The translations under genes and the position numbers were made by a program. A DNA stretch of 64,000 bases from an uncultured delta proteobacterium. GTDB taxonomy: Bacteria > Desulfobacterota > Binatia > UBA9968. The stretch lies in the NCBI GenBank assembly GCA_963840855.1, contig CAWJBB010000050.1, forward strand, positions 123,071 to 187,070, given 5' to 3'. Under the pieces are notes generated by a model. That model was given only the letters and a program-made list of their open reading frames with translations. It ran no database searches and was not told the DNA's origin. Shown in pieces: positions 46,110 to 50,701 of this stretch (position 1 is the first letter of the stretch; the number at the start of each line of letters is the position of its first letter).

Positions 46110-47441
46110 CTAGTCCCGTTTGACAAATCGGTTGGTGTTCTCTTTCAACGGGGCGTAATAGCCCACGTTCCCGGCCATGTCTCCCGAATGGCCCTTGCCT
46201 TCGTGCGACGCCGTGCAGCCGGCCACCGTGCATGCCTGATCTCCGGGTTTGATGCCGGAGTCGTAGTTCAGCCAGCGCACGCGACTGCTGCGCGTGACGC
46301 CCCAGAACCGGTCATCGATCCATTTGAGCGCGCGCACGAGCAATGGCCGCGCGGGAATGGGGCAGGTATGAAGAGTCCAAGTAGCGAGGCTGTGCCACCA
46401 GACGTTAGGTTTGGTGAATGGGCATACGGCAGCGCAGGTGAGGCAGCTGCCCCAGTAATCGTGCACGTAGGGACGCAGCTTGTAACAAGTTAGCCAGTTG
46501 ATCTTGTATTTTTCGATGCCGTTATGGACCACCTTGTCGCCGAACGGAATGCTGTTCGTGGGACAAGTGTTGGCGCATTTTCGGCAAATCTTGCAAAAGT
46601 CCTCAACACCGATATCGACGGGCGCGTCCGCCACCAGCGGCAGGTCGGTCAAGATCGGGTCGGGCATGTGGATACGGGCGCCAAAATTTTTGTTGATCAC
46701 GAGCCCGTTTCTGCCCAGCTCGCCGATGCCTCCGGCTACTCCGGCGGCTTGGGGAGTGACCACCCCTCGGAGCGCCGTGTATCCTAGTTCTTTGATGTAG
46801 CCCTCGAGGGCCTTCAGCATAAGCACGCCTTTCATTTGCGAGATATGGTACGCGGCGTCGCCGACGTGGTGGCGGTGCGCTTGCAGTTTGTTGTAATCCC
46901 ACGCTGTCGTGGCTTGGATGATATAGGGAAATTTCCGTACCAATTCCTCGGGAGAATCTTGCTGGTACGCGTCTTCCGCCGTCCCATCTTGCACATAGCG
47001 GCTGCCGGCGTACAAAAATGACGGATGCGCGTTGGCAATGCCGACGACATCGGCTCCCATATAGTGCGCAACCGCCTTGATGTGGCGGGTCATCGCCGCG
47101 GGATCGTCGACCGAGACTCGATTCGGGTTGACCTTTCCCTTGCTCGACCGGTTGATCACATTGGCCAAGAAATGTCGCCGATCGGCGAAATGATTCGGCG
47201 CCGATACCCGAGTCAATGGATCATTAGAGACAGTGTTCCGATACCAGTTGAAAAGCGGTTTCCCCAGTTCGCCGCGCTGATTTTTTGGATGGGGCGACTG
47301 GTTCATGTCCACGTTGACATGGGGTCCGACGAAACGGACCGATCGCCCAAGATAAGGCGGTGGCGGAATGCCGGCTTGACTACCGTTGGTGCCATTAGTG
47401 CCATTCAGTGGTTTGGTTTCTTTCGTCCCATTTACAGCCAT
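46110..47441 (-). CDS. Reductive dehalogenase (RdhA/QueG superfamily)-like protein, no TAT signal
   Basis: HIKAVAHYMGADVVGI, YIKELGYTA, GIGELGRNGLVI...ILTDLPL, CKICRKCANTCP and CLTCAAVCPF. Confidence 0.88.
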   Translation of the reverse strand: MAVNGTKETKPLNGTNGTNGSQAGIPPPPYLGRSVRFVGPHVNVDMNQSPHPKNQRGELGKPLFNWYRNTVSNDPLTRVSAPNHFADRRHFLANVINRSSKGKVNPNRVSVDDPAAMTRHIKAVAHYMGADVVGIANAHPSFLYAGSRYVQDGTAEDAYQQDSPEELVRKFPYIIQATTAWDYNKLQAHRHHVGDAAYHISQMKGVLMLKALEGYIKELGYTALRGVVTPQAAGVAGGIGELGRNGLVINKNFGARIHMPDPILTDLPLVADAPVDIGVEDFCKICRKCANTCPTNSIPFGDKVVHNGIEKYKINWLTCYKLRPYVHDYWGSCLTCAAVCPFTKPNVWWHSLATWTLHTCPIPARPLLVRALKWIDDRFWGVTRSSRVRWLNYDSGIKPGDQACTVAGCTASHEGKGHSGDMAGNVGYYAPLKENTNRFVKRD

Positions 47442-47515: not shown

Positions 47516-47914
47516 TCACGCATATGACGCCAACGCCACTTCAGCGCAGCGTTGATCCTGGTCGTCAGTGCCCCCCGCTACCGCAATAGCGCCGACTACG
47601 CTGCCACCCTCGACGATGGGCAACGCGCCTCCACCGGGCATAATGCGGCCATTGCTCGACACCACCAGGCTTTGAAACCACGACTGGCCCGCCACACCCG
47701 ACAAATCCTTGGTCGCCTGTTGAAAGTTCGCCGCCGTGTACGCCTTATTAAGCGCGATTTCTACAGTGATGGGCCGGGCCCTGTCCATGCGCCCCAGCGC
47801 GATCATACGACCGCTCGGATCTACCACCACTGCCGTCACCGCAATATCCAACTGCGCCGCCTGCACATGAGCTTTGCGCACCATTTCGATCGCCTTTTCT
47901 CCCGGGATAGCCAT
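47516..47914 (-). CDS. GlcG/HbpS family heme/cobalamin-binding protein
   Basis: VTAVVVDPSG...RMDRA...ALNKAYTA...GGGALPI...GAIAVAGG. Confidence 0.9.
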   Translation of the reverse strand: MAIPGEKAIEMVRKAHVQAAQLDIAVTAVVVDPSGRMIALGRMDRARPITVEIALNKAYTAANFQQATKDLSGVAGQSWFQSLVVSSNGRIMPGGGALPIVEGGSVVGAIAVAGGTDDQDQRCAEVALASYA

Positions 47915-48102
47915 GTTTCTTTGAAGTCCTCCTCCACATCGATCTACGATCTCTACTTTAGCAGATACTGCCCTCTGTTAGTCAAGCGCTTTATCGAACG
48001 CGTACTCATGTCCCCGCACCGGGCTTGCGCCTATTGCATCAGCGATTGCGCCTGCTCCACGATAGATGATAGAAATGCAAAAATATACAGGAGGTGATTT
48101 GT

Positions 48103-48663
48103 ATGAGGCTATTTTCTTACGGACCTTGACCCTACGCGCACAGGACAAGGCTTGTCCTCGCGGAAAAGCGGATTTCTCATGACCTCATCGAGTGCGATCT
48201 CAAAAATAAATCGAAGGAGTTGCTGGAACTCAACCCCTATGGCAAAGTCCCGGTGCTGGTGGACGGCGCTGCGGTAGTCTATGAGTCGGCGATCATCAAC
48301 GAGTATCTCGAAGAAAAATATCCAGAGGTGCGGCTCATGCCCAAAGATCCGACGCAGCGCTCGCGTGCGCGAATCTGGATCGATTACGCGAACACGCGCT
48401 TGCAGCGCGCCGGCGGTAACATCGCCCATGATTACCAGGTCGAGAAGTCAAAAGAGGAGTTGAAACAATACCTCGTCACACTGGACCAGGAAATGCGTGA
48501 CCGCGAATACATCGCCGGCGATTATTCGCTCGCGGATATCACCTACATCCCGTTCTTCACCCGGCTCGCCCGCTACCAGGCAACCATCGACGATAGCGTG
48601 CCCAATGTGAAGGCGTGGATGGAGCGGCTCCTGGCCAGGCCCACGGTGAGGGCGACGCCGTAA
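48103..48663 (+). CDS. Glutathione S-transferase family protein, probable selenoprotein (in-frame TGA at codon 9)
   Basis: AGGAGG RBS, ATG 48103, MRLFSYGP[TGA]PYAHRTRLVLAEK...LNPYGKVPVL...ESAIINEYL...YSLADI, in frame with ORF 48220-48663. Confidence 0.85.
48135..48162 (+). promoter_or_regulatory. Bacterial SECIS-like hairpin
   Basis: CGCG-cac-AGGACAA-ggc-TTGTCCT-CGCG starting a few nt after TGA 48127-48129; G-containing apical loop ~19 nt downstream of the TGA. Confidence 0.55.
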
Positions 48664-48677
48664 GCCGGTCGGAATCC

Positions 48678-48757
48678 GGTTCAAGGTTCAACGCGTTGAG
48701 TCTGCGCTTTCTCGCAAATCGCGAAACATTGAACTTTGAACCTTGAACTTTGAACGG
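48678..48757. repeat. GTTCAAN heptamer inverted-repeat element
   Basis: ggttcaag-gttcaac ... ttgaact-ttgaacc-ttgaact-ttgaacg between convergent genes. Confidence 0.85.
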
Positions 48758-48768
48758 CGCGCTAAGCG

Positions 48769-50232
48769 TTACAGCGTTTTCAGATACTCGATCAAGGCGT
48801 TTTTCTCTGCGACAGGCAGTGTCGCGCCGAATTCATGCCCCTGGTTGCCGCTGGCGCGCTCGCGCACGTCGAACTTCGTCCCGACCTTTTCCGCCTCCGG
48901 GCCCTGTGTGACAAAACCCACGTCCGTCGGGTCGTAAACGTCGTAGCCCCGGTAAAAGATCTTGGGGCGCTCTGCCACGGGCTTGAGCAGATCGCGCACG
49001 GTCGGCACCGAGCCGTTATGCAGATAAGGCGCCCGCAACCAGATGCCGTCGAGGAACGCCGCAATGTATCCGCTCGGCTCGATTTCCACGAGACCCTTCC
49101 GTTCGATGCCGAAGCCGCGCACCACTTTGTTCGATTCGATGGCTGCCTGCTTGCTCCAGGTGCCAAGGCGCTCGCGGTCGGTGCCGACCTCGTCCACGGG
49201 CACCCGCGTTCCGGTGCGCTCGCTCGCATGGCACCTCGCGCAGTTGCGCTCGAAGACATCCTTGCCTGTTTTAGCTAGAGCTTCGTCCACCGGAAACGGA
49301 TATTTAGGGGCGGAAATTTCGCCGAGATATTTCTCGAGCCACGCCACCTGTTCGAGAAAATCCTCCCTGCTATGCGGCTCGGCGCCAAGCAGTCCGAGCG
49401 CGGAATCGATAATCACCGAGCGCGCGTCGTGGCTATCGCCGGCGAGATTCATGAGCATGCCTTTTTCCGGTTTGTACTTCTTGAGGTTCCAGACCGACGG
49501 CATGTCCGTCGGGCCGATGCTGTTGTCCATGGGAACGCGGAGCAGGAAATACTTGGTCAAATTCATGGCATCATCGCGGCCCCGGCCCCAAAGTGGAAAA
49601 TCCGCGCGATAGACCCACTTGAACTGTTCCTCCCGTTCAAGCAAGCGCTTCTTGGTTATCGGAATGAGGAGATAACGATAAATCAGCCGATCGATCAATG
49701 ACAGCTTGGTGTGCCGGTCGATCTCGCCAAGGATCTCGTCGGGGTTAAACTTTGGGTCCTTCGCGCAATCGACCACAAAGCGAAAAAACGCCTGGAGGTT
49801 GAGTGTGTGGGTAGGGCCCGCGGGCACGAAGGTCGGGGAATCATTGGGGGCCTTGCGGTAGCTCGCCGTATGGCACGATGCGCAGTTGTTGGCCACGCGC
49901 GGAAAGCCGATAACTTTCTTGGTAAACCCTATTGGGAGTTCCTGTCCCTGTTCCGACATCACTCCCAAGGAAGCGTAGCCGCCGGGTCCGGGCAGTTTGT
50001 CCGGAAAAAGGCGCGGCAGCGCATACCATATCCAGTACGGGACGCCCGCGTCATGCTCTGCGCCGATGGAACCGTACTTGAAGCGCATTTCAGGCGTGGA
50101 CGTGACCCATCCAGGCTGCGGTTCCTCGCGGAAGAATTTATACCACCCGACGACGCCTCCGACGGCAACCAGCAAGACTATGAGGAGCAAACAGATTTTC
50201 CACCAGGATCCCTTTTTCGGCGCGTTTGCCAT
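48769..50232 (-). CDS. RoxA-like di-heme cytochrome c, membrane anchored
   Basis: N-terminal TM, FKYGSIG, CASCH, CARCH, LDGIWLRAPYLHNGSVPT, GNQGHEFG, LIEYLKTL. Confidence 0.88.
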   Translation of the reverse strand: MANAPKKGSWWKICLLLIVLLVAVGGVVGWYKFFREEPQPGWVTSTPEMRFKYGSIGAEHDAGVPYWIWYALPRLFPDKLPGPGGYASLGVMSEQGQELPIGFTKKVIGFPRVANNCASCHTASYRKAPNDSPTFVPAGPTHTLNLQAFFRFVVDCAKDPKFNPDEILGEIDRHTKLSLIDRLIYRYLLIPITKKRLLEREEQFKWVYRADFPLWGRGRDDAMNLTKYFLLRVPMDNSIGPTDMPSVWNLKKYKPEKGMLMNLAGDSHDARSVIIDSALGLLGAEPHSREDFLEQVAWLEKYLGEISAPKYPFPVDEALAKTGKDVFERNCARCHASERTGTRVPVDEVGTDRERLGTWSKQAAIESNKVVRGFGIERKGLVEIEPSGYIAAFLDGIWLRAPYLHNGSVPTVRDLLKPVAERPKIFYRGYDVYDPTDVGFVTQGPEAEKVGTKFDVRERASGNQGHEFGATLPVAEKNALIEYLKTL

Positions 50233-50269: not shown

Positions 50270-50701
50270 TCAGAATTTCAGAGCGAAGTCGATGAGCCGC
50301 TTCTTTCCCAAATATACCTTTCCGAGATACAAACCTGGCCCGATTTGGCGAATTTCATCACGAATCCATTTCGCCACAAGCGAGGTTTCGGAATAGTCGA
50401 GAACGATGCACTCCTTGCCGTCGAGCCAGCTGGGCGCCTTGTACACTTTAGCGATGATAGCGTTCAGCCCAAAGCTGGTGATCCGGTTCTTCAGCACGCC
50501 CTTCTTGGCATCGAACACTTTGCCCTGCCACGCAAAGTGATTGATAAAAGAAGCGATGTCATTACTATATTTCGTGCCCGGGGCGACGATCGCGGTACCG
50601 TCGGCTTCACCGTTTGGAATTTTTCCGGAATTGCTTTTTTTGAAAAGCTCGTCGAGATCCGCTTGAGACATTTCCAACAGTTGCGGCACAGTATACGCCA
50701 T
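50270..50701 (-). CDS. Conserved hypothetical protein upstream of the di-heme cytochrome
   Basis: GGGAG RBS; AWQGKVF, SWLDGKECIVLDYS, IRDEIR, YLGKVY. Confidence 0.8.
   Translation of the reverse strand: MAYTVPQLLEMSQADLDELFKKSNSGKIPNGEADGTAIVAPGTKYSNDIASFINHFAWQGKVFDAKKGVLKNRITSFGLNAIIAKVYKAPSWLDGKECIVLDYSETSLVAKWIRDEIRQIGPGLYLGKVYLGKKRLIDFALKF

Follow-up and report, generated by a model that had tools for sequence, protein, structure and literature searches.

Does the TGA at the ninth codon of a glutathione S-transferase (GST) reading frame in this DNA end translation, as gene finders assume, or does it encode a catalytic selenocysteine (Sec)? The frame occupies positions 48103-48663 of the window, by which we mean the whole stretch of 64,000 nucleotides that was analyzed, taken from the source genome (G000). 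On the comparative sequence evidence set out below, we consider it very probable that this locus, referred to here as seleno-GST, is a genuine selenoprotein gene with a catalytic Sec, and that gene finders mistake its TGA for a stop. The features on which the analysis draws are as follows (plus strand throughout).

48089..48094, plus strand: Shine-Dalgarno sequence AGGAGG, read in the sequence, 8 nt 5' of the ATG at 48103-48105
48103..48663, plus strand: full coding sequence of the predicted seleno-GST, 186 codons with Sec as codon 9 and the stop TAA at 48661-48663, translated with TGA as U
48103..48327, plus strand: thioredoxin-like N-terminal domain, residues 1-75 (Pfam), which contains K48-V49-P50 and E61-S62
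48127..48129, plus strand: in-frame TGA, putative Sec codon, residue 9 in the motif U-P-Y-A, from column comparison with relatives
48136..48162, plus strand: SECIS-like element inside the coding sequence, with a 7-bp upper stem, a GGC apical loop and a short GC-rich lower helix
48142-48148 and 48152-48158, plus strand: the two arms of the upper stem, AGGACAA and TTGTCCT, around the loop GGC at 48149-48151 (from the fold)
48436..48642, plus strand: helical C-terminal GST domain, residues 112-180 (Pfam GST_C and GST_C_2; helices in the AlphaFold2 model)

An earlier note on this DNA had pointed to a strong AGGAGG ribosome-binding site ahead of the ATG at 48103, to a frame running unshifted from MRLFSYGP through the TGA into the open reading frame (ORF) called at 48220, and to a hairpin AGGACAA-ggc-TTGTCCT within about 20 nt of the TGA. 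All three are present: the ribosome-binding site lies at 48089-48094, the coordinates of the frame agree, and the hairpin spans 48142-48158, starting 12 nt past the TGA. Codons 1-8 read MRLFSYGP, codon 9 is TGA, and the frame then continues as PYAHRTRLVLAEK, with no shift into the ORF that starts at TTG 48220. GGAGG-like motifs are also found at the equivalent place in orthologues. ORF calling with translation table 11 yields 48220-48663 only, a form of 147 aa.

The same shortening is widespread among database proteins. As many as 118 of the best 120 database relatives cover at most 95% of the query (134-177 aa), and the N-termini of all six of those truncated relatives that were read begin past the TGA, which bears out the earlier claim that standard gene callers truncate this gene. 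Because gene calls start past the TGA, public records lack the catalytic residue together with half of the domain that binds glutathione.

Selenocysteine machinery of the source genome

Bacteria insert Sec by means of SelB carrying Sec-tRNA(Sec), which is recruited by a SECIS hairpin downstream of the UGA. By analogy, translation of seleno-GST would start at ATG 48103; with UGA 48127 in the A site, the hairpin 11-12 nt downstream, with its G-rich apical loop, would recruit SelB and Sec-tRNA(Sec), and Sec would be inserted in place of termination.

The source genome has a sel cluster on contig C1, with the minus-strand order selA, selB, selD. The selA gene is intact (616 bits), and selD (383 bits; G000:C1:37491-38546, minus strand) has one in-frame TGA and reads A-A-G-U-A-A-K, with Sec as residue 20 in the N-terminal glycine-rich loop; selD is a second selenoprotein gene in this genome. 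The selB gene was recovered in two pieces (208 and 193 bits): its locus, which lies outside the window at G000:C1:38581-40510 on the minus strand, contains ORFs of 183 and 455 aa, split by a single base that the same-genus genomes G001 and G002 do not have. In all five relatives checked, selB is one intact frame. Furthermore, the extra base is absent from four of four contigs, one spanning contig from each of four soil-metagenome runs from four studies; these contigs have a depth of 3-4 and 1-4 other letter differences over 181-501 bases, and may represent the DNA of near relatives. Judged from these comparisons, the insertion is most likely either a consensus error of the assembly or a private lesion.

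A tRNA-Sec gene (selC) was not found in the source assembly by Rfam, by aragorn or by blastn with the tRNA-Sec of five relatives, nor was one found by synteny with the selC loci of G002 and G016 or by Rfam on two weakly syntenic regions. The best Rfam tRNA-Sec score in this assembly, 43 bits with a cut-off of 47, falls on a tRNA-Ser. As a 2026 review states, selC can sit inside selB in some lineages (PMC13188914); in the selB region and sel cluster of the source genome, Rfam detected no tRNA-Sec. Seven relatives, namely the same-genus G002 (76 bits), G016 and five complete genomes of the order, have a tRNA-Sec scoring 73-78 bits. In the source assembly aragorn reports only 39 tRNA genes, and tRNA-Asn is absent altogether; since this assembly is 94% complete and in 93 contigs, the missing tRNA-Sec is weak evidence of absence. 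For the sel genes that the earlier note wanted confirmed in this genome, the result is mixed. The lineage possesses the Sec machinery, but in the source assembly only selA and selD are intact and above their profile cut-offs; selB carries a one-base insertion, and selC was not found.

Taken at face value, the split selB and the missing selC would suit a situation in which the family is a true selenoprotein family and Sec decoding is broken in the source strain, so that the gene yields an 8-residue peptide only. We regard this as improbable: all four independent contigs lack the extra selB base, selD, seleno-GST and its hairpin are free of decay, and the assembly lacks several tRNA genes, every tRNA-Asn among them. 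It is more improbable still that the TGA is decoded as something other than Sec, either by genome-wide reassignment or by a near-cognate tRNA that reads it as Trp or Cys. Of the 36 open frames in the 64-kb window that have 300 codons or more, 12 terminate in TGA, which is thus an ordinary stop in the source organism; the paralogues, selA and selB contain no internal TGA, the sel genes are present, and a constrained hairpin stands at SECIS distance. The one observation in favor of such decoding, a W at the TGA column of database entry P0005, is probably the product of a gene caller that used a table in which TGA encodes Trp.

Conservation of the TGA column and of the hairpin

When 41 related genomes, which represent three families of a single order, were searched in six frames, the best orthologue contained one TGA and no more in 39 of them (55-99% identity), or in 37 of 39 when the unpublished genomes G009 and G015 are left out. 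In the two exceptions, the match ends at a contig edge before the column (G007) or only a paralogue was obtained (G036). Among the 20 loci listed from related genomes, all 19 that reach the column carry the TGA there. Nearly all genomes of this order, which is widespread in soil, carry seleno-GST. In a sample of 200 genomes from elsewhere in the phylum, a search at E <= 1e-55 returned no orthologue, a result that does not imply absence.

A contig scan gave 80 named loci, mostly from metagenome-assembled genomes (MAGs) whose titles say Candidatus Binatia or, in older labelling, Deltaproteobacteria. At the column of interest these loci have the following codons.

TGA, 49 of 80 named loci: 48 orthologues at 57-95% identity and a SAR324 homologue (L110) at 44%
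Ser (TCN), 27 of 80 named loci: the paralogue with S-S-P-N-C-Q-R
Cys (TGT/TGC), 3 of 80 named loci: C-P-Y-A-Q-R, in Gammaproteobacteria MAGs
Column not covered, 1 of 80 named loci: contig end

Database protein P0068, which has 149 member sequences, is a Cys form reading C-P-Y-A-H-R-T-R. It is 63% identical to seleno-GST and 71% identical to the Sec form L101, from which it follows that Sec and Cys interchange within one orthologous group. The earlier note had made its reading depend on homologues that carry TGA at this position and on a pairing of Cys with TGA in their alignment; TGA recurs in the 39 genomes and 49 loci given above, and its place is otherwise taken by Cys (three loci and P0068) or by Ser (27 loci).

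Orthologues with the TGA also occur in MAGs titled Verrucomicrobiia, Chloroflexota, Eisenbacteria, Limnocylindrales, Acidiferrales and Syntrophobacter, which may reflect either Binatia contigs given the wrong label or bin, or genuine transfer. Four MAGs (G002, G003, G004 and G023) have two TGA-bearing copies, which belong to two subclades (L099/L084, L100/L062, L101/L060) with the N-termini M-K-L-F-S-Y-G-P-U and M-K-L-Y-S-C-H-T-U; the source genome has the first only. A second seleno-GST paralogue, about 33% identical, begins M-I-Q-M-Y-H-W-P-T-U-P-W-C and contains a U-x-x-C motif. It is represented by L138 (from the unpublished G009), L139 (G014), L140 (G006) and L141 (G033), has TGA in the equivalent column and its own hairpin, GGTGCG-GAT-CGCACT, at equal distance, and was not found in the source genome. 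Two matches to the Ser-type GST paralogue in the source genome, G000:C56:207-791 and G000:C41:81865-82449, have equal scores (141.5 bits, 41% identity), which suggests that a stretch is duplicated between two contigs (the estimated contamination of the assembly is 8%).

The region 5' of the TGA appears to be translated, because residues 1-8 are conserved while Leu3 is free to use all six Leu codons, and because the sequence 5' of the Met is unconserved and contains stops.

The candidate SECIS hairpin lies just 3' of the UGA and has G in its apical loop, as is expected of such an element. Its loop is short, consisting of 3 nt (GGC), or of 5 nt if the closing A-U pair opens, and no bulged U was identified in the hairpin. 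Single-sequence folding, which we tried as evidence for a SECIS, gave nothing significant: the fold of 49 nt has z = -1.11, with 24 of 200 shuffles folding as well or better, and is not exceptional, and the fold in a context of 116 nt has z = +0.52. The case for the hairpin therefore rests on the comparison with other genomes.

For the codon comparison, we used the 67 of 100 loci that have the TGA and at least 55% identity, or are L110; L030 (contig end), the truncated L034 and L088, and paralogues were left out. Removal of nine duplicates gave 58 distinct genes, that is, 57 orthologues and L110. Across codons 13-19 (H-R-T-R-L-V-L), synonymous entropy is 0-0.42 bits, and in 57 of 57 orthologues R16 is encoded by AGG and V18 by GTC; it is higher, 0.53-2.33 bits, in the flanking codons 10-12 and 20-40, and among the 57 orthologues all six Leu codons occur at Leu3, at Leu33 and at Leu40. 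As the hairpin is formed from the H-R-T-R-L-V-L codons, which belong to helix alpha-1, this stretch would be under both protein and RNA constraint.

The hairpin alignment (48 columns, 51 distinct rows) was evaluated with a structure of 10 pairs. In this structure 97.8% of the cells are paired, whereas shifting the partners by 1-3 columns lowers this to 21-44%. Double compensatory changes occur in three stem pairs, a number reached by none of 500 shuffles:

C-G to U-A, in L075 and L096
G-C to A-U, in L110
A-U to G-C, in L110

The covariation is thin (three pairs, four cells) because most of the stem is invariant, and the frozen synonymous sites are the stronger of the two arguments for what appears to be a constraint at the RNA level. 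In most orthologues the stem begins 11 nt past the UGA; that outermost C-G pair is a C-C mismatch in the window, where, according to the fold, the short GC-rich lower helix can form in its place. At the equivalent place, the distant SAR324 Sec homologue L110 has a hairpin that differs from this one, and so does the second Binatia paralogue.

These results leave very little room for the TGA being a true stop, in which case translation from TTG 48220 would give the real product, of 147 aa, and what precedes it would be an 8-codon leader or untranslated. Such a product is what table-11 ORF calling gives and what 118 of the best 120 database proteins represent, but it would be without beta-1, alpha-1 and beta-2 of the thioredoxin-like domain; over codons 10-39 the protein sequence is conserved although synonymous sites vary, a strong ribosome-binding site precedes ATG 48103, and the Cys and Ser homologues run unbroken through the TGA column. 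We find a true stop scarcely credible. A sequencing error or pseudogene lesion in the source genome has practically no chance of being the explanation, for although the assembly has at least one probable single-base error, in selB, the TGA recurs in 39 of the 41 related genomes and, among 80 loci deposited independently, in 49, which refutes it. The seleno-GST with a U-P-Y-A motif that the earlier note proposed is supported by the Cys or Ser in the TGA column of homologues, by the order-wide conservation and by the constrained hairpin.

Fold, glutathione site and gene neighborhood

Both Pfam and an AlphaFold2 model indicate that the 186-aa read-through product is a complete GST, in which the thioredoxin-like N-terminal domain and the all-helical C-terminal domain of the cytosolic GST superfamily are both present. 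Residues 1-75 match GST_N_2 (PF13409, the top match, 1.5e-20), GST_N_3 (3.5e-19) and GST_N, and residues 112-180 match GST_C (4.4e-12) and GST_C_2; in NCBIfam, seleno-GST falls under every equivalog cut-off. The AlphaFold2 model, for which 18 homologues served as input, has a mean pLDDT of 94.6 and places residue 9 between beta-1 (residues 2-5) and alpha-1 (10-21), with beta-2 at 27-30. K48, V49, P50, E61 and S62 are invariant across 18 Sec, Cys and Ser homologues. From knowledge of the family, we take K48-V49-P50 (the cis-Pro loop, V-P) and E61-S62 (which binds the gamma-glutamyl group) to be residues of the glutathione site.

The Cys-type GSTs include the omega, lambda, DHAR and Grx2-like classes. 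By analogy with these, seleno-GST probably binds glutathione via the conserved K-V-P and E-S residues, and its selenolate would form a selenenyl-sulfide with glutathione. The result would be thiol-transferase or reductase chemistry, such as deglutathionylation or the reduction of dehydroascorbate-like or other oxidized substrates, and not conjugation. Genes for glutathione synthesis are present in the source genome, including gshB (404 bits) and a GCS2 ligase (223 bits); the E. coli-type gshA (PF04262) had no match in this genome, the GCS2 type being found instead.

Around the gene, the window contains the following.

46110-47441, minus strand: upstream neighbor, a 443-aa protein with a 4Fe-4S dicluster domain
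47516-47914, minus strand: upstream neighbor, an HbpS-like protein
48679-48691 and 48736-48748, no strand: perfect 13-nt inverted repeat, 15 nt past the stop, between the convergent GST and cytochrome c genes
48769-50232, minus strand: downstream neighbor, a 487-aa RoxA-like cytochrome c
50270-50701, minus strand: downstream neighbor, a 143-aa ORF with no Pfam match

The two upstream neighbors recur in 4 of 48 orthologous loci and the two downstream neighbors in 2 of 48, all of them from close relatives. In about 14 of 48 loci, within one subclade, a FlK-type hotdog thioesterase is encoded directly upstream on the same strand (e.g., L065:2466-2975), with a bicupin and an amidohydrolase_2 nearby; this arrangement is absent from the window. 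The latter context hints weakly at a connection with aromatic catabolism. We rejected the neighborhood as a basis for assigning a substrate.

The inverted repeat, which overlaps two tandem 14-nt units (48725-48752), possibly marks the end of the transcript. Consensus scans detected neither a canonical intrinsic terminator nor a sigma-70 promoter for the seleno-GST gene.

Relation to known GST families and selenoproteins

In Foldseek comparisons the model reaches TM scores of 0.87-0.92 with glutathione-bound bacterial GSTs of the SspA-like type (4hoj, 4qq7) and with tau-class, omega-class and DHAR structures. The SspA-like GSTs 4qq7, 4hoj and 6v91 rank first by fold (TM 0.87-0.88, 32% identity) and belong to the top group of matches by sequence (E 8e-30 to 4e-28); they carry Cys where seleno-GST has Sec, and in the PDB alignments the column reads Cys in 6v91 and 4qq7 (C-P-F). 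SspA itself was rejected as an identity, because the score against the NCBIfam SspA equivalog, 112 bits, is far under the cut-off of 314. Plant tau-class GSTs such as 4chs and 7dwf also match over the full length in both sequence (E 4e-29) and fold (TM up to 0.91), but have Ser in the catalytic column (S-P-F, as in 4chs) in place of Sec. Ser-type GSTs such as tau perform conjugating, not reductase, chemistry.

Omega-class GSTs have a Cys-type active site with a C-P-[FY]-A-like motif, and the class is defined by an extension of some 20 N-terminal residues ahead of beta-1. Human GSTO1 (1eem) and others share the fold of seleno-GST (94 bits, E 8e-26 over residues 2-184, TM 0.89). However, seleno-GST lacks the extension, its residue 2 aligning with residue 25 of 241 in 1eem and only eight residues preceding the Sec; it also lacks about 27 residues that the omega chains have at the C-terminus, and Sec replaces the omega Cys. 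The earlier description of the protein as omega/Xi-like is only approximate: the best matches are SspA-like and tau, with omega next, and the omega extension is absent.

GST selenoproteins have been described before. According to the 2005 study, the selenoprotein families newly identified in the Sargasso Sea include a GST, with four sequences (PMC1088965), and 12 sequences are given for the GOS data (PMC2398784). The 2005 supplement has Sec at the equivalent position, in one entry as U-P-W-V and in another as U-P-Y-A with an A-GGC-U hairpin apex (PMC1088965). The 2026 review lists a 'GST-like protein, PF13409' and describes the functions of such families as largely uncharacterized (PMC13188914). 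Since the 2005 supplement and the 2026 review list GST selenoproteins, one of them with U-P-Y-A, the kind of protein is already known. In the GST-like selenoproteins from the Sargasso Sea and GOS, as here, a GST N-terminal domain (COG0625 / PF13409) carries Sec right before Pro at the start of helix alpha-1, and, judged by domain, position and motif, seleno-GST is a member of the GST-like selenoprotein family of 2005. What is new is the soil Binatia clade, the near-universal presence in its order, the frozen SECIS, the close Cys form and the U-P-W-C paralogue in four relatives. A full-text literature search found, among the matches listed, no paper on Binatia selenoproteins, and the available text of the 2026 review contains no mention of Binatia, Desulfobacterota or soil (PMC13188914).

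Direct biochemical comparison is possible with the Binatia clade, where Sec forms exist alongside a natural Cys form of close sequence and a paralogue with Ser. Binatia are an abundant but uncultured soil lineage, to which a demand for selenium can now be tied.

The published entries are fragments from marine metagenomes, whereas seleno-GST belongs to a soil Candidatus Binatia clade and is found order-wide; the Sargasso U-P-Y-A entry and seleno-GST have the same downstream hairpin apex, A-GGC-U. A tentative reading, which we think rather unlikely to be correct, is that in soil Binatia seleno-GST is no sporadic Sec variant but a core enzyme fixed throughout the order, having in common with the marine U-P-Y-A form the apex A-GGC-U, which corresponds to an Arg-Leu codon pair. 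If this were true, the Cys form P0068 (71% identity) and the U-x-x-C paralogue would constitute a natural system for determining what selenium buys a GST, and one ancient Sec-GST lineage would have spread between marine and soil bacteria, as opposed to repeated recent switches from Cys to Sec.
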